From: Escherichia phage vB_EcoS-95
DNA: 50,910 nucleotides
Sequence record: NC_048132.1
Reading direction: 5' to 3' (one strand)
Part shown: piece after piece, positions 3,955-50,910 of the stretch
Layout of the letters: every line of letters starts with the position of its first letter
Numbering within the stretch: position 1 is the stretch's first letter
Translations under genes and position numbers: made by a program
The notes under the pieces: model-generated
Databases searched by the model: none
Seen by the model: only the letters and a program-made list of their open reading frames with translations
What the model was told of the DNA's origin: nothing

Positions 3955-4373
3955 TGGCTATAACTGATAAAGGAGATTATCTTGAGTTTTACGAAAGAGA
4001 TCCAACCGACACGAGAAAGGAAGTTAATCACCAGATAGATAGCTTTCAGTGGTTGACTTATGCTCATCCTTATTTGCTAGCGTGGCATACGGTAAACGAG
4101 AATGAGAAGTCGAAAGTAACGGCGATGATTGATCAGCAGTCCGGCTTGGTTAAGGGGGTAAGCGATTTCATCATCCTGATTGGTTCAAACGGAAAATACC
4201 CCTTTGCAGCGATTGAGATCAAACGAGTTAATAAATCAGGCAAGGGGAAAGCATCACCAGTCAGCGATGAACAAAAGGCTTTTTTGCGTCGCGTTCGCAG
4301 TTTAGGAGGATTCGCTGCGGTCGCCTACGGATTTAATCAGTTTAAGTTAGCTATTGAATACATGCTTAAATAG
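3954..4373 (+). CDS. VRR-NUC domain nuclease
   Basis: GVSDFIILIG...AIEIKRVNKSGKG...QKAFL pattern typical of VRR-NUC (PD-(D/E)XK) nucleases; start overlaps helicase stop. Confidence 0.55.
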   Translation: MAITDKGDYLEFYERDPTDTRKEVNHQIDSFQWLTYAHPYLLAWHTVNENEKSKVTAMIDQQSGLVKGVSDFIILIGSNGKYPFAAIEIKRVNKSGKGKASPVSDEQKAFLRRVRSLGGFAAVAYGFNQFKLAIEYMLK

Positions 4374-4413
4374 CACTTTTTGTTAAAACTGGCGCGATGG
4401 ATTGCGCCATAAT
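4371..4413 (+). promoter_or_regulatory. Box promoter (box 4371-4389 overlapping stop TAG; hairpin GGCGCGATGGATTGCGCC; -10-like CATAAT 4408-4413)
   Basis: Exact 19-mer TAGCACTTTTTGTTAAAAC; fixed 18-bp gap to -10-like hexamer. Confidence 0.6.
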
Positions 4414-5182: not shown

Positions 5183-5440
5183 ATGAAAAAAGAGAGAAGC
5201 GTTTATTTAAATGAAACTGGCGAATGGTTGTTATTTCGCGCTATGGTGTGCGATGCACTTGATAAAAACCCTAACGTGAAAAAGATGATTGATTGCGATC
5301 CGTGGGAATTTTCAAGCGCATTAGATATGAGCTTTGAGGAGACAAGAAAACTACCGCTTGAAAAATGGCACGAACAAATAAGAAATGACATGCAAGAGTT
5401 TGTCGATTCGTGGAATTTTCAGAACGGAATGATCCACTAA
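5183..5440 (+). CDS. Hypothetical protein
   Basis: 85-aa ORF with RBS; stop TAA directly followed by the box. Confidence 0.4.
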   Translation: MKKERSVYLNETGEWLLFRAMVCDALDKNPNVKKMIDCDPWEFSSALDMSFEETRKLPLEKWHEQIRNDMQEFVDSWNFQNGMIH

Positions 5441-5483
5441 TAGCATTTTTTGTTAAAACGCCCGGCATTTTGTCGGGCATAAT
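5441..5483 (+). promoter_or_regulatory. Box promoter (TAGCATTTTTTGTTAAAAC, hairpin GCCCGGCATTTTGTCGGGC, CATAAT 5478-5483, leader CATAGAAACGAA)
   Basis: Box + hairpin + -10-like hexamer at family spacing. Confidence 0.6.
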
Positions 5484-5509
5484 TATTTCATAGAAACGAA
5501 CGTGAGGAA

Positions 5510-5695: not shown

Positions 5696-5927
5696 ACAAG
5701 GAAGAGATGCGGTATGGAATCACGCTAAAGAATGCGGAATAGCCGACGATATAAAGAAGATAGCGCAATACTTTGATATTGCAGATGTGAGCATAATTAG
5801 CGGTGATAAGATGACTTTCCTCAAGGAAAGGCCGCGAAAAATGGTAAGAGTTCCAGCAGTTCCAACAAAAATTGATTTCAAAGAGGCAATGGCTAAAATC
5901 CGAGAGCCTCGCAAATATTATAAATGA
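5685..5927 (+). CDS. Hypothetical protein
   Basis: ORF track 5664-5927 trimmed to internal ATG (MKVEQGRD). Confidence 0.3.
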   Translation: MKVEQGRDAVWNHAKECGIADDIKKIAQYFDIADVSIISGDKMTFLKERPRKMVRVPAVPTKIDFKEAMAKIREPRKYYK

Positions 5928-5931
5928 GGAT

Positions 5932-5992
5932 AGTTATCATGTGGCGCTTGTTTGTTCTACCGTTACCAGTTATCATCGCTGTTACAGTTATG
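5932..5992 (+). repeat. Direct repeats AGTTATCAT (x2) plus AGTTATG upstream of the HTH-phosphoesterase gene; candidate operator
   Basis: AGTTATCAT at about 5932 and 5968, AGTTATG at about 5986, in non-coding leader. Confidence 0.3.
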
Positions 5993-6021
5993 TACCATAT
6001 AGTAATGAGATAGGTAGCAGA

Positions 6022-7137
6022 ATGAAAAATGTAAAAATTACAGATGAGCAATTCAAGATCGAACGGGCGGCAGGTAAGACATATAAACAGATCGCTCAAG
6101 AGTACGGAATGAATGTGAGAAGCGTCGAACGTCGCGCGGCGCGCCTTGCAAAACAAGGACAGCTATCAACCATCGGAGCGCCTGGTTTTGGTGTTCATGG
6201 TGAGTCAGTAATGACTGACAAAGAAGGCAACATAATCCTCAAGTGGACCAAAACCAGCAAGGATAAAGAGCAACTAGAAGCATTAATGCGCGCAGCAATG
6301 GAGGCGTTTAGCGAGGAAGTGCCGCGATTAGATTCAGTTCCATTGCAGGAGCGTGACTATAATGAAACGCTTTCATTGTATCCGATCTTTGACATGCACT
6401 TAGGCGCTATGGCCCATAAGCACGAATGCGGCGAAAATTGGGATACTGCGACGGCGGAGCGCGTTATGAATAACTTTATTGACTATGCTTTGATGTGCGC
6501 ACCGGACAGCGAAAAGGCTGTTATCCTGATTGGTGGCGACATGCTTCATAGCGATGGCCTTGAGGCTGTGACACCTGCAAGCGGTCACGTACTTGATCAA
6601 GATAGCCGATATGCAAAATTGGTTTACGTTGCAATCCGTGCAATGCGTCGCGCAATTAACAAAATGCTGTTAAAGCATAAGCATGTTGAGGTCCAGATCG
6701 TAGAGGGCAATCACGACCAATCAGGAATGATTTGGCTACGCGCAGCAATGGCGGCAGCATATGAGAACGAGCCGCGCGTTTACGTTGATGTTTCTCCTCG
6801 CGTTGTTCACCACACGCAATACGGAAAAACTTTCCTTGCGTACCATCACGGGCACACAGTGCGCAAACCTGAGACTTTGCTAATGATGTGCGCGTCAGAT
6901 TGGCGGGAGGACTTCGGAAACTCAAAAACGATGTATGCGCACGTAGGGCACTGGCATCACCAGACCGTGACGGAAACGTCGCTTGGCATCGTTGAGGTGC
7001 ATAGCACCCTGGCGGCAAAAGACGCATACGCCGCGCGCGGTGGATGGAGATCTCGACGCCGTGCAGCGGTTATCATTTACGACAAAGAGCATGGAGAAGT
7101 TGGGCGATTTGTTCACTATCCAGAAATGATGAATTGA
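6022..7137 (+). CDS. HTH domain fused to calcineurin-like metallophosphoesterase
   Basis: N-terminal HTH (KTYKQIAQEYGMNVRSVERRAARLAKQG); DMH, GGDMLHSD, GNHD, HHGH, GHWHH metallophosphatase signature motifs; start at internal ATG (track start 5872 is TTG). Confidence 0.5.
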   Translation: MKNVKITDEQFKIERAAGKTYKQIAQEYGMNVRSVERRAARLAKQGQLSTIGAPGFGVHGESVMTDKEGNIILKWTKTSKDKEQLEALMRAAMEAFSEEVPRLDSVPLQERDYNETLSLYPIFDMHLGAMAHKHECGENWDTATAERVMNNFIDYALMCAPDSEKAVILIGGDMLHSDGLEAVTPASGHVLDQDSRYAKLVYVAIRAMRRAINKMLLKHKHVEVQIVEGNHDQSGMIWLRAAMAAAYENEPRVYVDVSPRVVHHTQYGKTFLAYHHGHTVRKPETLLMMCASDWREDFGNSKTMYAHVGHWHHQTVTETSLGIVEVHSTLAAKDAYAARGGWRSRRRAAVIIYDKEHGEVGRFVHYPEMMN

Positions 7138-7185
7138 TGAATTTTTATTTAAATCAATGACAAATTAAATCAAAAACTTGCAAAG

Positions 7186-7216
7186 GGGCGGCGTTTGTCG
7201 CCTCTTTTTTTGTTTG
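7186..7216 (+). terminator. Weak rho-independent terminator after the phosphoesterase gene
   Basis: Short GC stem (GGCG..CGCC) followed by TCTTTTTTTGTTTGATTTTTT. Confidence 0.35.
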
Positions 7217-7244
7217 ATTTTTTACCATGTAAGTTTATCATTCG

Positions 7245-7258
7245 GTCAATATATTGAC
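7245..7258. promoter_or_regulatory. Perfect 14-bp palindrome GTCAATATATTGAC upstream of the lysis cassette; candidate operator
   Basis: Self-complementary sequence 24 bp upstream of holin ATG. Confidence 0.4.
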
Positions 7259-7281
7259 TTTAATTAATATGGAGAATAAGA

Positions 7282-7497
7282 ATGAAAGATTTTATTAACG
7301 CAGCTACCGCCGGATCTGGCGGTTCATCTATCGCAAGCGCCGCGACAGGGCAGTTAACCATTGCTATTGCCAGCTTTGTTTTAATGGCTGCATTCGGTGC
7401 ATGGGGCGCTTACCTTCGCTGGCGTGATAGTAAAAAATTCCACGAGGCGATCGAAAATGGTGATATTCAAAAAGCTATTGAAATCAGGGGCAAGTAA
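7282..7497 (+). CDS. Holin (single TMD, 71 aa)
   Basis: Small protein with one hydrophobic helix and charged C-terminus, immediately upstream of endolysin. Confidence 0.55.
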
Positions 7498-7988
7498 TGA
7501 GCATAAAGAACAAGGTAGCGGCTGCGGCATTTGGCGTTGCGGTTGCCTTGACTTCTCCACTTCTTGAAGAGATCGAAGGGGTAAGATACAAGCCATACAA
7601 AGATATTGCGGGAATATGGACGGTTTGCGCAGGAATCACCGGACCAGATGTTATCCTGGGGAAAACGTACACTAAAAAAGAGTGTGATGCTTTGTTGGCT
7701 AAACATATCCAGGTTGCTAAAAAAGAAGTTGACAAGCAGGTTAAGGTTGACATTCCTGATAGTATGCGTGCAGCAATGTACTCATTCACTTATAATGCAG
7801 GTGTGGGAGCTTTCAGAAATTCAACAATGCTGAAACTCATCAACCAGGGGAAATTAAAAGATGCTTGCGATCAGCTTTATCGTTGGACGTATTACCATAA
7901 CCCCAAAACAGGAAGGCGCGAGAAGTCTAAAGGCTTACTTAACAGGCGCAAGGTCGAATACAAATATTGCACAATGGATCTGAAATGA
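7497..7988 (+). CDS. Endolysin (phage lysozyme, GH24-like)
   Basis: [23 protein letters not shown] catalytic-region motif of phage lysozymes; 163 aa. Confidence 0.7.
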
Positions 7989-8380
7989 TGAAGAAATTTT
8001 TACTTACACCAATCGCAATGGCGGTGATCTTGTCTGGATGTTCAAGCGTTACGCCACTGACCGGATTAATCGGCAGTAAGCCGGAAATAACAGCACAGGC
8101 TGGCGCTGAGAACGTGAAGCAGACAGTTGGCATTACAGCAAAGCAGGACGAAAGCACAAAACAGAAAACCACAATAAAGGAATCTGCGGTTGACAAGGTG
8201 GACACGTCCAGCAAGAAGGATTTCACAACATCAACCATTCAGGCCAATACCATCAAGGCAGAAAAAATTCAGGTCGTGCAGGGTAATAACGGCAGATGGT
8301 ACGATCCAATAATCATATGCGTGGTTGTGTTCATTGTGCTGATTTTTCTTTACTGGAGGGAAAAGAAAAAGGAGGCTTAA
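7985..8380 (+). CDS. Unimolecular spanin (u-spanin, T1 gp11-like)
   Basis: N-terminal lipoprotein signal with lipobox LSGC plus C-terminal TMD ([16 protein letters not shown]); start ATGATG overlaps endolysin stop. Confidence 0.6.
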
Positions 8381-8400
8381 TGCCTCCTTTATTTTTATGC
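8361..8400. terminator. Bidirectional rho-independent terminator between the lysis cassette and the convergent minus-strand block
   Basis: Hairpin AGGAGGC-TTAAT-GCCTCCT flanked by A/T runs on both sides. Confidence 0.55.
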
Positions 8401-8619
8401 GTCGGGCCACATATGAGTTTCGTTTGTTGGCTTGTTCGATTCGTCGTACTGCCTTACTTCAATGCTGCAAGTGTCGCCGTACAGTTCTGCAATCTTGCGC
8501 TCATTTTCAACCGCCGATTGCTCACTCCATCCAAAATCCCTGTCGTAAATTGTCGGGATTTCAGCAGAAGATCCGTTGTCATGATTATATACGCGAACTA
8601 CTAAAAACTTTCTGGACAT
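8395..8619 (-). CDS. Hypothetical protein
   Basis: 74-aa ORF; preceded by box promoter and conserved leader. Confidence 0.4.
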   Translation of the reverse strand: MSRKFLVVRVYNHDNGSSAEIPTIYDRDFGWSEQSAVENERKIAELYGDTCSIEVRQYDESNKPTNETHMWPDA

Positions 8620-8655
8620 AATTTTACCTTTTGGTTGTTTCGTTTCGATGAAACA

Positions 8656-8698
8656 AATATACCCGACACTAGGCCGGGCGTTTTAACAAAAAATGCTA
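8656..8698 (-). promoter_or_regulatory. Box promoter (minus strand; -10-like TATATT; leader CATCGAAACGAA)
   Basis: Reverse complement of box at 8680-8698, hairpin GCCCGGCCTAGTGTCGGG, hexamer at family spacing. Confidence 0.55.
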
Positions 8699-8816
8699 TT
8701 CCATACGCTTTACCGTAACCAGTAATACACCATCACCATTGCATAAAACATGTTCAGTGGTGCTAAAAGCGCGCATATCTGAATAAAGTAGCGTAAGTAA
8801 AGCATGAATAAAATCC

Positions 8817-11491: not shown

Positions 11492-11534
11492 ATTATGCCA
11501 GGTTTTTACACCTGGCTTTTAACAAAAAGTGCTA
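11492..11534 (-). promoter_or_regulatory. Box promoter (minus; hairpin GCCAGGTGTAAAAACCTGGC; CATAAT; leader CACATCGAACAAAC)
   Basis: Box overlaps stop TAG of the methyltransferase-like gene. Confidence 0.55.
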
Positions 11535-16623: not shown

Positions 16624-16883
16624 TGAAAAAGGCATTAATCGGCGTTTTGGCGGCAATGACACTCCTGACCGGATGCGAAAAGGCATCAGAATCAACGGTT
16701 GTCGTAGGCGTTGAGTCAGATTTCAAAGTCGGCCGCCTGTTCACTGTTGACGGATGCACAGCATACAGATTCTATGATAACGGTCGCGCGATCTATTACA
16801 CCAGTTGCAAAGGCGCAACGGATAGCACATACAACAGCGGAAAGAACGTAATGCACCAGCAAGTCACAACAGATATTAAATAG
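16623..16883 (+). CDS. Putative lipoprotein
   Basis: Signal peptide with lipobox LLTGC; 86 aa. Confidence 0.5.
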   Translation: MKKALIGVLAAMTLLTGCEKASESTVVVGVESDFKVGRLFTVDGCTAYRFYDNGRAIYYTSCKGATDSTYNSGKNVMHQQVTTDIK

Positions 16884-16923
16884 CACTTTTTGTTAAAACG
16901 CCAGGCGCAAAGCCTGGCATAAT
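16881..16923 (+). promoter_or_regulatory. Box promoter (hairpin GCCAGGCGCAAAGCCTGGC; CATAAT; leader CATCGAAACGAG)
   Basis: Exact box overlapping stop TAG. Confidence 0.6.
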
Positions 16924-16955
16924 AGCCTCATCGAAACGAGATTGAGTAAACAAAA

Positions 16956-49126: not shown

Positions 49127-49163
49127 TGACAAAAAGCCCCGCATATGCGGGGCATTTTTATTT
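49127..49163. terminator. Bidirectional rho-independent terminator between ssb and the convergent tail-fibre gene
   Basis: GCCCCGCA-TA-TGCGGGGC flanked by A5 and TTTTTATTT. Confidence 0.65.
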
Positions 49164-50910
49164 GAGATCAACAAGTTTTGCAACCATCGACTTTAATTCG
49201 TCAACCTCTCGCTCAAGATTATCTATTCTTTCCTTGTTTTCAACGTCACGCGCCCTAAGAGCCTTGATTGCAGCAAGGCCATCAAGAAGCATAGGTGTTT
49301 GATCAAGATGCCAGAATCCTCCAACGTCCTTTGTGTATTCCTTGTCGATCGCCCTTATTTGCTGGGAAATAACGCCGCGACGAGTTGCACCAGCATTTTT
49401 CTTTGTTGTATGCTCCTCTTTAAACTTAAATAGTTTAAACTCCATTCTGTTGATGTTATCAAGCGCACACTCGACATTCATATCACCCATCACGTCCTTT
49501 AATCGCTCGTCAGACACGGCGCTTGTTGTCAGTTGCACCCATCCACTCCATGATGAGTCGTTTGTCTGTATTCTTGAGAATATCCTGTTTGACGTATCAT
49601 AAAACCTTTGCTGATACCACTTATTTCTAGTACCAACATTGTTTGCCCTTCCGGCTGATAATCCTTGCGAGCACTGAGTGAAAAGAGAGCCGTATACATT
49701 CCCGCTTTGAGGCGTTCCTGTTCCAGTGCCACCCCAATTTCGCCACCCTTGATGCGCTTCATTCATGTTTGCTGCCGTGTAACCAGGGACCGATGTTCCA
49801 CCTATAGCAAGCCCACCCTCATATGAAACATATCTTCTCTCCGTTGTATTTGGTCTTTCAATAACAATCGTCCTTCGATCTGTGTTATCACTTTCTTTTG
49901 CGAAAAATATGTTTAACTCATTCCCTCTGTTGTTTTCTGCATAAATACGTCTACCTATATATGTTTCGTCAACAGATGTAGAATTAAGAACTACAGAAGG
50001 CCATCCCGTTCTAATTGACAATCCTGAAAATGTAGGTGAGTGTTGTGCATTAAGGCCGATATTGTTTCGTATTCCGTTTGCGTCTTTAGCTCCTGTTCCA
50101 CCCTTATTTACTGGCAAGGCTATATCAGAATTAGAGGCTGAATCCCACATCCCCCAATCGCCATTATTTTTTACGAAAATTCGCTTTGTTCCATCAGCAC
50201 TTGAAACGACAGTCTCACCGGATGCATCAGACCCCTGCACCAATCTATCTACGCTTAAGTTTTTTCTTGCTTCACCTTTATCTGCAAGATCGTTAAGGTT
50301 GTTGTTTTTGTTAAGCATATTTTCCGGATTTATGCTATCTGCATATTCTTTCGCCTTATCTTCAGAAGCCTTAGCGGCATTTTTTGATGTCAGGGCGTCA
50401 GAAGCAGATCTGGCAGCTTCGCTCTTGCTTGCATTGGCTGCATTCTCTGAATTTTTGGCATTTGTCTCCGACGTCTTTGCTGCATTCTGAGAAGCGAGCG
50501 CAGCTTCCTGAGATGCTTTAGCGGCATCCTTGCTTGCATTTGCTGCGTCTTCTGAATTTTTTGCTTTAGTTTCTGAATTCTTTGCGGCGTTCTGAGATGT
50601 TAGCGCAGCAGACGCTGAATTTGCCGCCTCTATCATGCTTGAGTTAGCCGCCGTTTCAGATGCTTTAGCATTAGTCTCTGACTCTTTTGCTGCAATCTTG
50701 CTCGCGTTTGCTGCGTTTTCTGACTGTTTAGCATTAGTCTCTGACGCTTTCGCTTCGTTCTTTGAATTAAGCGCATCGGACGCAGATCTTGCTGCGGCAT
50801 CCTTACTTTGACTCGCAGACTCTGCGTTTTCTTCCACCTGTTTAGCTAAATCCTGATAATGCCTCCAATCAAACGTCTTAAGGAATTCGAGCGCCTCCCC
50901 AATCTCTGAT
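49158..50910 (-). CDS. Tail fibre protein with C-terminal intramolecular chaperone domain (5'-truncated at window end)
   Basis: Ser/Ala/Asn/Lys repeats (ASETNAKNSENAANASK) like T5 pb1-type fibres; C-terminal ERLKDV...peptidase S74-like chaperone; reading frame stays open to 50910. Confidence 0.65.
   Translation of the reverse strand, partial: SEIGEALEFLKTFDWRHYQDLAKQVEENAESASQSKDAAARSASDALNSKNEAKASETNAKQSENAANASKIAAKESETNAKASETAANSSMIEAANSASAALTSQNAAKNSETKAKNSEDAANASKDAAKASQEAALASQNAAKTSETNAKNSENAANASKSEAARSASDALTSKNAAKASEDKAKEYADSINPENMLNKNNNLNDLADKGEARKNLSVDRLVQGSDASGETVVSSADGTKRIFVKNNGDWGMWDSASNSDIALPVNKGGTGAKDANGIRNNIGLNAQHSPTFSGLSIRTGWPSVVLNSTSVDETYIGRRIYAENNRGNELNIFFAKESDNTDRRTIVIERPNTTERRYVSYEGGLAIGGTSVPGYTAANMNEAHQGWRNWGGTGTGTPQSGNVYGSLFTQCSQGLSAGRANNVGTRNKWYQQRFYDTSNRIFSRIQTNDSSWSGWVQLTTSAVSDERLKDVMGDMNVECALDNINRMEFKLFKFKEEHTTKKNAGATRRGVISQQIRAIDKEYTKDVGGFWHLDQTPMLLDGLAAIKALRARDVENKERIDNLEREVDELKSMVAKLVDLK

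Follow-up and report, generated by a model that had tools for sequence, protein, structure and literature searches.

The segment at 7182-8390 of Escherichia phage vB_EcoS-95 (NC_048132.1) is very probably a self-contained lysis transcription unit of a T1-like (Warwickvirus) coliphage, with a promoter of its own, without a box, and with a palindrome that is probably not an operator. The window, by which we mean the whole stretch of 50,910 nucleotides that was analysed, is a T1-like siphophage genome (Drexlerviridae, Tempevirinae, Warwickvirus) with 97-98% nucleotide identity to the phages tonijn, EC167 and vB_Eco_Sip. The gene identities, the architecture, the terminators and the conservation patterns of the lysis unit are clear (Table 1). 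The cassette is the standard three-gene lysis module of T1-like coliphages, already known and annotated in near-identical phages; as an instance of the T1 paradigm with annotated relatives at 97-98% identity, it has little importance beyond correct annotation. The unit is of interest as a box-less one whose promoter/start-site block is conserved across Tempevirinae and T1, which gives concrete sites to mutate, and these sites speak to the question of when late and lysis transcription occurs in T1-like phages.

Table 1. Coordinates of the features in and around the lysis unit (positions in the window)
Feature	Position	Strand	Basis
Intrinsic terminator of the upstream exonuclease/phosphoesterase unit	7182-7207	+	Terminator scan; stem AAAGGGGCGGCG/TCGCCTCTTT, then T-run
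Weak -35-like hexamer TTGATT	7214-7219	+	Promoter scan, 9/12; 16 bp upstream of the -10
Predicted -10 TATCAT of the lysis promoter	7236-7241	+	Conservation
Perfect 14-bp palindrome GTCAATATATTGAC	7245-7258	.	0 mismatches; ~-3 to +11 of the predicted promoter
Predicted transcription start A, preceded by C	7248	+	7 nt after the -10
TTGACT, conserved TTGAC(A/T) hexamer	7254-7259	+	Forms the right arm of the palindrome
Holin Shine-Dalgarno (SD) GGAG	7271-7274	+	Sequence reading; 7 nt before the ATG
T1-type lysis cassette (holin, SAR endolysin, u-spanin)	7282-8380	+	Homology
Holin, 71 aa, T1 gp13 homologue	7282-7497	+	phrog_2877 holin, E = 2.7e-32, full length
SAR endolysin, 163 aa, phage lysozyme/GH24	7497-7988	+	PF00959, E = 1.1e-38
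u-spanin, 131 aa, T1 gp11 homologue	7985-8380	+	phrog_1804 Rz-like spanin, E = 8e-48
Bidirectional intrinsic terminator	8368-8390	.	Terminator scan, both strands; contains the spanin stop codon

The three genes of the lysis cassette

The three ORFs and their lengths were found as the initial annotation had described them, and the holin-endolysin-spanin order that it had likened to T1 was confirmed by homology to T1 gp13, gp12 and gp11, by the PHROG lysis families, by the P21 SAR-endolysin structures and by the records of near-identical Warwickvirus phages, which annotate holin, endolysin and u-spanin at this locus. In pairwise alignment the holin is 55% identical to T1 gp13 across 71/71 aa. 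Its N-terminus is rich in Gly, Ser and Ala and weakly hydrophobic at residues 5-23; next comes a strongly hydrophobic segment, the only one in the hydropathy profile (residues ~20-45), and the C-terminus is charged. T1 gp13 carries the annotation 'pinholin class 2' in the T1 record, and the features that would place the holin among the pinholins are this homology and a SAR endolysin as the adjacent gene. Pinholins (class II holins) are expected to have two transmembrane domains (TMDs), of which the first is SAR-like and can leave the membrane. For this type of holin, one TMD is given in T1 records and two are given for the holin of TLS (PMC11447400). A dual-start holin/antiholin motif was rejected for this phage, as no in-frame start precedes 7282 and the following Met comes only at residue 35, where no SD was seen.

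The start of the endolysin gene overlaps the stop of the holin gene (TAATG), and its product is, judged by sequence, a SAR endolysin of the P21 R21 type, for which Sec export and release upon depolarisation are predicted. It is 65% identical to T1 gp12 (pairwise, over nearly its full length) and matches the P21 R21 structures 3HDE and 3HDF with E ~1e-47 (1.2e-47 for 3HDE); the alignment with R21 begins at residue 2, so that the N-terminal Ala/Gly-rich segment is included. Residues 6-23 are weakly hydrophobic (Kyte-Doolittle 1.9) and align with the SAR domain of R21, as is proper to a Gly/Ala-rich signal-anchor-release (SAR) segment, which takes the place of a cleavable signal peptide. In addition, the catalytic triad E27-x8-D36-x5-T42 is present and follows the rule E-x8-D/C-x5-T.

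The spanin gene is the last of the cassette, and its start overlaps the endolysin stop (ATGA). A single-gene (unimolecular) spanin as in T1 had been proposed, and this assignment holds: the protein is 47% identical to T1 gp11 over 126 of 131 aa (E = 6e-39), which lies within the clustering rule of the u-spanin family (identity to a family member of 40% or more across 40% or more of the length; PMC6139136). Its lipobox is LSGC, likewise the lipobox of T1 gp11 (PMC6139136), with an acylatable Cys19 and Ser, not Asp, at +2, which accords with sorting to the outer membrane. The C-terminal TMD (~105-124, maximum Kyte-Doolittle 3.6) is followed by the short basic tail REKKKEA. Cys occurs only at positions 19 (lipid anchor) and 112 (within the TMD), and none is periplasmic. 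LSGC, Ser at +2 and the C-terminal TMD are common to 39 unique family members, and periplasmic Cys is absent in 38/39 unique spanin relatives. Single-sequence AlphaFold2 (overall pLDDT 56) modelled a helix at 108-130 (pLDDT 70-86) and was uninformative on the periplasmic domain, residues 21-90 having pLDDT 41-53 and no assigned secondary structure; a short helix and then at least four beta strands are predicted for this domain in the u-spanin family (PMC6139136). An Rz1-like o-spanin embedded in the spanin gene was rejected, since the sole internal ORF (8190-8312, 40 aa) has no lipobox, and an NCBIfam search gave no curated family above cut-off for holin or spanin. T1 gp11 is the prototype u-spanin and complements lambda RzRz1, and the family occurs in pinholin/SAR-endolysin cassettes (PMC6139136); complementation of the lambda Rz/Rz1 defect has been shown for T1 gp11 only, for whose function the T1 record gives PMID 30135120 as the source.

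By homology to experimentally tested systems, we infer the order in which lysis would proceed. One mRNA from the lysis promoter would carry the three translationally coupled genes. The SAR endolysin would be exported by Sec and stay inactive, tethered in the inner membrane, until the small holin (of the T1 gp13 type, a pinholin in T1) had accumulated and triggered, depolarising the membrane and thereby releasing and activating the endolysin. After degradation of the peptidoglycan, the u-spanin, presumably anchored in the outer membrane by the lipid on Cys19 and in the inner membrane by its C-terminal TMD, would disrupt the outer membrane, most likely via fusion with the inner membrane.

Terminators, predicted promoter and absence of the box

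Two strong terminators flank the cassette. The RNA of the upstream one folds with -16.6 kcal/mol (z = -4.8, 11 pairs), a stability reached by none of 200 shuffles, and this terminator is annotated in vB_Eco_Sip and kept in every relative. The bidirectional terminator downstream, which also serves the convergent gene 8619-8395, folds with -16.8 and -14.2 kcal/mol (z = -4.8 and -4.3) and is annotated in vB_Eco_Sip, T1 and TLS.

Directly after the upstream terminator, the conserved positions suggest a host sigma-70-type promoter without a box, which would use the predicted -10 and start at about A7248. Within the spacer, conservation peaks at a TAnnAT at the equivalent site in every genus, T1 included (TAAAAT); this hexamer reads TATTAT in PeterMerian and mar001J1. 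An A stands exactly 7 nt past TAnnAT in 31/33 unique upstream regions across genera, and TC is found at -2/-1 of the predicted start in 18 of these. From these patterns we infer the lysis promoter and a transcription start site (TSS) at ~7248. The -35-like hexamer reads TTAATT in 6/7 Warwickvirus sequences (the window has G at 7216 versus A in 6/7 relatives), so this -35 is not conserved, and it is probably unimportant. No TSS or transcriptome data for Drexlerviridae, Tempevirinae included, were found in the literature searched.

In a box promoter of T1-like phages (the marbox-like 21-nt direct repeat), ATAGCACnnnTTGnTAAAA points the way of transcription and a -10 hexamer follows after ~20 nt. 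The region 7138-7281 contains no such arrangement, with no match at up to 3 mismatches and no marbox core at up to 1. Furthermore, both ATAGCACTTTTTGTTAAAA (up to 3 mismatches) and the marbox core (up to 1 mismatch) are absent between 5458 and 8681, which bears out the earlier statement that no box precedes the holin. The region upstream of the TLS holin is also without a box (Table S1, PMC11447400); with the box absent before both holins, the lysis unit falls outside the box set. The best local resemblance, a degenerate box TCTTTTTTTGTTTGA under the T-run of the terminator (11/15 to the marbox core), was rejected as it has neither the GCA nor the AAA recognition element. As an observation on the box itself, it is an exact match to the E. 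coli MarA/SoxS/Rob marbox consensus and has class II geometry.

Alternatively, the cassette might have no relevant promoter of its own and be transcribed from the box promoter that precedes the exonuclease gene (5443-5457), by read-through of the upstream terminator, in which case it would belong to the box regulon after all. This box promoter is the nearest on the same strand, has the -10 CATAAT 20 nt after the box, and is separated from the cassette by one terminator alone. The lysis promoter scores just 9/12 with its unconserved -35, and a promoter scan of 6800-8800 returned 4 candidates versus 4.0 in shuffles. However, the intervening terminator is the strong one described above, kept in every relative, and the -10/start-site block is kept directly after it across genera, which would be unexpected if the spacer were functionless. 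T1 keeps this block even with extra genes separating the exonuclease gene from the holin. We consider read-through an unlikely explanation and favour a lysis promoter within the unit.

The palindrome and the TTGAC(A/T) hexamer

The palindrome is perfect over 14 bp and lies before the holin as the initial annotation had claimed; the holin ATG at 7282 follows after 23 intervening nt and thus begins 24 bp past it. Its occurrence is at chance level: perfect palindromes of at least 14 bp number 6 in the genome versus 4.2 +/- 2.0 expected from 300 dinucleotide shuffles, and 26% of the shuffles reach 6. Within the 74-nt spacer (77% A+T) the probability of a palindrome of at least 14 bp is 0.014, which fails correction because a reader scans dozens of intergenic regions. 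A search of the window for a second copy or for pairs of half-sites gave none beyond chance, even with 3 mismatches or a variable spacer. An exact 14-mer scan of IMG/VR had at least 120 unrelated contigs among the matches listed and was uninformative on conservation. A role as an RNA hairpin or attenuator was rejected, as the minimum-energy fold bypasses the palindrome (z = -0.8 to -1.0).

The palindrome could be an operator at which a dimeric DNA-binding protein gates lysis transcription apart from the box regulon, the candidate binders being the phage's own Cro/YdaS-like HTH protein (encoded on the minus strand at 1393-1869) or host proteins, IHF for one. Its overlap with the predicted start site is the classic position for a repressor, and a different palindrome, CAATTAATTG, is found at the same place in Hanrivervirus, where in pSf-1 it is extended to AACAATTAATTGTT and is perfect over 14 bp. 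With a local chance of ~0.01 each for Warwickvirus and Hanrivervirus, different palindromes at the same place in two genera may point to some symmetric recognition. In addition, AATCAATTAATTG in JakobBernoulli is compatible with the IHF core, which we take to be WATCAANNNNTTR. Nevertheless, the dyad symmetry is not maintained. PeterMerian and mar001J1 (Warwickvirus) carry GTTAATATATTGAC, an uncompensated C->T in the palindrome, and are viable phages; in Hanrivervirus the outer arm positions vary on one side only; and no palindrome is found in four other genera with the same cassette, Changchunvirus, Tlsvirus and T1 having none at this position. Together with the chance-level frequency and the single site, these patterns make the gating of lysis by such a protein very unlikely, and the palindrome is probably not an operator. 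Thus, of the earlier proposal that the lysis genes are controlled by a regulator other than that of the box regulon, the absence of the box stands, but the palindrome, with its chance frequency, single copy and uncompensated breakage in relatives, is a poor candidate for the operator, which leaves the proposal tentative.

Most likely, the 14-bp palindrome is a by-product of adjoining conserved elements. Its left arm covers the family-wide predicted start site, and the two adjacent, separately conserved elements that would generate it are the start-site context (G)TCA and TTGAC(A/T). The latter is present in 27/33 unique upstream regions, and 22 nt lie between it and the holin ATG in 20/27 (range 21-25). 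A hexamer with such constant spacing to the start of the holin gene is an unexplained feature worth keeping. The element near the start site (the palindrome in Warwickvirus and Hanrivervirus; the family-wide TTGAC(A/T) 22 nt before the holin ATG) might be a dedicated cis-regulatory site that sets the timing or amount of holin and is recognised by some factor of phage or host origin, with no dependence on the marbox-like box promoters, which on this reading drive most other transcription units. We regard such a site as quite unlikely; if it existed, T1-like phages would time lysis via a separate control circuit.

Two further functions for the hexamer were considered. TTGACT could be the -35 of a second promoter, with the -10 AAGAAT at an 18-bp spacer overlapping the holin ATG, and the palindrome would then be irrelevant; since this -10 overlaps the ATG, transcription would begin within the holin gene and the mRNA would code for endolysin and spanin but not for holin. 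The promoter scan flagged this site (9/12), TTGAC(A/T) is a near-perfect -35 held exactly 22 nt from the ATG in 20/27 unique sequences despite diverged intervening sequence, and with an 18-bp spacer the hexamer reads nAnnAT in all genera having the 22-nt gap. However, the A and T of this apparent -10 are also supplied by the A-rich spacer between SD and AUG and by the ATG itself, the 24-25 nt gaps of the Tlsvirus type give poor -10 hexamers, and a transcript without holin would meet no known need, so that a second promoter is highly improbable. Equally improbable is a role in the RNA, in which TTGAC(A/T)TTT would be a translational enhancer or protein-binding site in the 34-nt holin leader and tune holin synthesis. 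Its distance is fixed to the SD and ATG and not to the promoter (+7 to +15 from the predicted +1), and UUGACUUUAA in the window resembles the epsilon enhancer of T7 gene 10, presumably UUAACUUUAA. This resemblance is lost in the genera having TTGACA, the leader has no significant structure (z as given above for the hairpin), and Rfam matched nothing in the whole window at gathering score, with only far-sub-threshold, terminator-driven matches in 7000-8800.

Comparison with known lysis systems

The layout of the cassette, annotated as holin, endolysin and u-spanin, is identical in the Warwickvirus and Hanrivervirus relatives tonijn, EC167, vB_Eco_Sip, PeterMerian, JakobBernoulli and pSf-1, with 95-98% (Warwickvirus) or ~71% (Hanrivervirus) nucleotide identity over the cassette. 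In P21, the R21 endolysin is a close homologue (3HDE/3HDF) that shares the N-terminal SAR segment and the E-D-T triad. P21, with the S21 pinholin and R21, has a two-component Rz/Rz1 spanin, differing from the u-spanin of the window, and its late genes are under Q antitermination.

The T1 cassette reportedly consists of a pinholin, a SAR endolysin and the prototype unimolecular spanin (Summer 2007; Kongari 2018). T1 gp13-gp12-gp11 have the same gene order and overlapping junctions (71/162/133 aa versus 71/163/131 aa here), and, as here, a terminator precedes the cassette, a bidirectional terminator follows it, and a conserved -10 and start-site block lies upstream. In T1, two additional genes, an HNH endonuclease and ORF14, separate the exonuclease gene from the holin. 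Unlike the window, T1 has no TTGAC hexamer 22 nt before the ATG, and the one T1 sequence that resembles a palindrome, TCAAAT-AA-ATTTGA, precedes the -10 and does not cover the start site.

TLS gp67-69 resemble the window in encoding a pinholin-type holin, a SAR endolysin and a u-spanin between the terminators T66 and T69/T70 (PMC11447400). Neither a 21-nt direct repeat nor a sigma-70 promoter is listed upstream of the TLS holin (PMC11447400), and this holin has a possible dual start (M1/M7) that is absent in the holin of the window. The authors of the TLS study likewise report an inverted repeat upstream of the holin (PMC11447400); this repeat, TTTAATTAAA, lies between TTGACA and the SD and not over the start site, unlike the palindrome of the window.

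The lysis cassette and its products

A megablast search with positions 7100-8450 as the query returned 79 phage records at a query coverage of 80% or more. In all, 59 records showed 95-99% identity, and the top matches were Escherichia phages EC167, tonijn, vB_Eco-B1.2 and vB_Eco_Sip. Because of these matches and the classification of vB_Eco_Sip and PeterMerian (Drexlerviridae; Tempevirinae; Warwickvirus), the window is, as judged from its sequence, the genome of a T1-like siphophage. About 20 unannotated 'Campylobacter phage' records in GenBank (MG065638-MG065687; stated host C. jejuni) also carry a T1-like lysis cassette (DNA ~70% identical, spanin 86% identical); these look like coliphage contaminants or host misassignment.

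The holin matched phrog_2877 from end to end (E = 2.7e-32) and was 55% identical to T1 gp13; its hydropathy profile comprised a Gly/Ser/Ala-rich N-terminus, a single strong hydrophobic segment at residues 20-45 and a charged C-terminus. The endolysin was a Pfam phage lysozyme (E = 1e-38), 65% identical to T1 gp12, with an N-terminal Ala/Gly-rich segment and the triad E27-x8-D36-x5-T42. Its alignment to the homologous SAR endolysin of phage P21, solved in inactive and active forms (3HDE, E = 1e-47; 3HDF, E = 1e-45), began at residue 2. The spanin matched phrog_1804 (E = 8e-48) and shared 47% identity with T1 gp11 across 126 of its 131 residues. Its N-terminal lipobox (LSGC, Cys19) is followed by Ser at +2, and near the C-terminus lies a TMD (~105-124) with a basic tail behind it. 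Periplasmic Cys is absent, and no ORF with a lipobox was found embedded in its gene. Among 39 unique spanins from 47 related loci, LSGC occurred in nearly all (IVAC in three Tlsvirus-like sequences), Ser at +2 and the C-terminal TMD in all 39, and a strongly conserved 28-residue periplasmic motif was held in common; periplasmic Cys was absent in 38. A single-sequence AlphaFold2 model (pLDDT 56) bore out only the helices at the two ends, giving no information on the periplasmic region.

T1 gp11 is the prototype u-spanin (unimolecular spanin) and complements lambda RzRz1; spanin families were defined by at least 40% identity across at least 40% of length, and members of the T1 family have no periplasmic Cys and occur in pinholin/SAR-endolysin cassettes (Kongari et al., PMC6139136). 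Near-identical relatives' records label the three genes holin, endolysin and lipoprotein, Rz-like spanin or u-spanin, and the current T1 GenBank record labels their counterparts "pinholin class 2", "SAR endolysin" and "u-spanin". The initial annotation had recognized the T1 paradigm in the holin-endolysin-spanin order and the single-gene spanin; the T1 gp13/gp12/gp11, phrog_2877, phrog_1804, Pfam and P21 matches bear this out, and by homology this gene-level reading is right and already known. Both gene junctions overlap (TAATG, holin/endolysin; ATGA, endolysin/spanin), which suggests that the three genes are translationally coupled. By homology to experimentally tested systems, the SAR endolysin would be exported and then tethered in the inner membrane until triggering of the holin depolarises the membrane and so releases and activates the endolysin. 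Degradation of the murein would then free the spanin, anchored in both membranes, to disrupt the outer membrane, with membrane fusion as the probable means.

Features of the lysis region and exemplary marbox-matching copies
Feature	Position	Strand	Details
Terminator after upstream exonuclease gene	7182-7207	+	-16.6 kcal/mol, z = -4.8
Weak predicted -35, TTGATT	7214-7219	+	promoter scan
Predicted -10 block, TATCAT, and A	7236-7241 and A7248	+	spacer comparison
TTGAC(A/T) hexamer	7254-7259	+	spacer comparison
GGAG before holin	7271-7274	+	read from sequence
Holin ORF	7282-7497	+	71 aa
Endolysin ORF	7497-7988	+	163 aa
Spanin ORF	7985-8380	+	131 aa
Bidirectional terminator containing spanin stop codon	8368-8390	both	-16.8 and -14.2 kcal/mol
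Exact marbox-matching copy	4373-4387	+	consensus scan
Exact marbox-matching copy	16883-16897	+	consensus scan
Exact marbox-matching copy	11518-11532	-	consensus scan

Transcription of the lysis unit

We compared 33 unique spacer sequences, from the upstream terminator to the holin ATG, drawn from GenBank relatives (T1, TLS, Hanrivervirus, Changchunvirus, Warwickvirus) and IMG/VR contigs. Two blocks were conserved across genera and the remainder had diverged. The first was TAnnAT, in most cases following GGT; in 31 of 33 sequences an A stood exactly 7 nt downstream of the hexamer, and in 18 TC came immediately before this A. This block resembles a sigma-70 -10 hexamer with its start site, both predicted; the weak -35 hexamer is TTAATT in six of seven Warwickvirus sequences. 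Expression of the cassette by read-through from a promoter at 5443, which carries the 21-nt direct repeat (box) of T1-like phages, is possible, but a strong, conserved terminator followed by the conserved -10/start-site block argues for a predicted promoter of the cassette's own.

As initially annotated, no box copy (≤3 mismatches) was present in the interval from the exonuclease gene to the holin; the nearest copies lie at 5440 (+) and 8681 (-). In TLS, terminators T66 and T69/T70 surround the lysis genes, and neither a promoter nor a 21-nt direct repeat is given upstream of the holin (PMC11447400, Table S1); a box-less lysis unit is therefore a family trait.

The exonuclease/phosphoesterase gene directly before the lysis unit (5872-7137, +; relatives' annotated start equivalent to 6022) gave a weak N-terminal HTH signal (Sigma70_r4_2 / HTH_23, E ~2e-3 to 6e-3, below cut-off) preceding its phrog_704 nuclease domain. 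The 44 nt from its stop to the terminator (7138-7181) contain two TTAAATCAA copies, at 7149 and 7165. In seven Warwickvirus sequences the only position at which this stretch varied was 7184, A or G, where the terminator stem begins, and the spacer after the terminator was more variable; other genera keep a AAATCATCA-like motif at the equivalent position.

The second block, TTGAC(A/T), was present in 27 of the 33 upstream regions; in 20 of these, 22 nt separate it from the holin ATG, and the sequence in between is divergent. It is fixed relative to the SD/ATG (22 nt) and not to the promoter, falling at +7 to +15 from the predicted +1. A second promoter could use the hexamer as its -35, with a -10 overlapping the holin ATG (the scan flagged TTGACT-18-AAGAAT at 9/12); a leader RNA element and a protein half-site are also possible.

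The palindrome upstream of the holin

The perfect palindrome GTCAATATATTGAC was confirmed at 7245-7258, with the holin ATG 24 bp past its last base as originally described, and covers approximately -3 to +11 of the predicted lysis promoter. That it is an operator, as its proposed regulatory role would imply, is in our judgment improbable. In favor of an operator, different perfect or near-perfect dyads occupy this one spot in two genera (Warwickvirus and Hanrivervirus), and a scan of ten window ORFs turned up one candidate dimeric regulator, a Cro/YdaS-like HTH protein. Its ORF (158 aa; 1393-1869, -) matches PF15943 (E = 1e-6) and PF14549 (E = 6e-4), each short of the gathering score, and from its location adjoining the helicase gene it probably corresponds to the T1 ST23 'transcriptional regulator'.

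Against an operator, the window holds six perfect palindromes of at least 14 bp versus 4.2 ± 2.0 in shuffles; the chance of one within the 74-nt AT-rich spacer alone is 0.014, an unremarkable value once a whole genome has been scanned. The palindrome occurs once in the window, with no related site at ≤3 mismatches or with variable spacers. PeterMerian and mar001J1 carry GTTAATATATTGAC, in which a C-to-T change at the predicted -1 keeps a pyrimidine and breaks the dyad with no compensating change. In Hanrivervirus, CAATTAATTG takes its place with AA, AT or GT at the left outer positions and a fixed TT at the right, and variation is therefore one-sided. At the equivalent position there is no palindrome in Changchunvirus, Tlsvirus and others; T1 has only a dyad upstream of the -10, unlike the palindrome over the predicted start in the window. 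An RNA hairpin was not favored (z about -1), and Rfam gave no family match. Thus, the facts given in the initial annotation all proved correct and the cassette part of its interpretation stands, whereas the palindrome as a lysis regulator is not supported by the five tests (frequency, copy number, conservation within the genus, conservation between genera, and RNA). In the simplest account, the left arm, (G)TCA, would be conserved start-site context and the right arm the conserved TTGAC hexamer; since TCA and TGA are reverse complements, side-by-side placement alone makes a partial dyad.

Perfect palindromes of at least 10 bp were depleted in the window (33 versus 60.4 ± 7.8 in dinucleotide shuffles; 300/300 shuffles had at least the window's count), which may reflect restriction-site avoidance.

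The box repeat and the marbox consensus

The box ATAGCACTTTTTGTTAAAA has 19 copies in the window at ≤3 mismatches versus 0.03 expected. A separate 81-nt unit recurs in four tandem-like copies at 50424-50777, spaced 105/105/63 and 65-100% identical to the reference copy; they fall within ORF 49158-50837 of the minus strand, whose protein would thus have a repetitive segment.

The box fits the marbox consensus of E. coli MarA/SoxS/Rob, 5'-GCAHWWWWTGYYAAA-3' (quoted in PMC6900184), without a mismatch in 17 copies; at ≤1 mismatch the window has 23 matches (six with one mismatch) versus 2.8 expected. Most marbox-like copies are oriented with transcription, ~20 nt upstream of CATAAT, TATAAT or TACATT. 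Many box promoters also have a conserved leader motif, (T/C)CATCGAAACGA(A), after the -10 and before the SD (for example, 16930-16945 and 5488-5500). The ten window ORFs scanned included no AraC-type protein. The marbox match suggests that most T1-like phage promoters may be driven by host Rob/MarA/SoxS or by a phage mimic; it bears on the "box regulon" of the initial annotation and lies outside the cassette finding. The TLS paper (PMC11447400) describes this repeat and suggests stoperators, enhancers or UP elements, not marboxes, as possible interpretations. At class II MarA/SoxS/Rob promoters, the marbox faces forward and overlaps the -35 (PMC6900184), and most boxes of the window have this same geometry.
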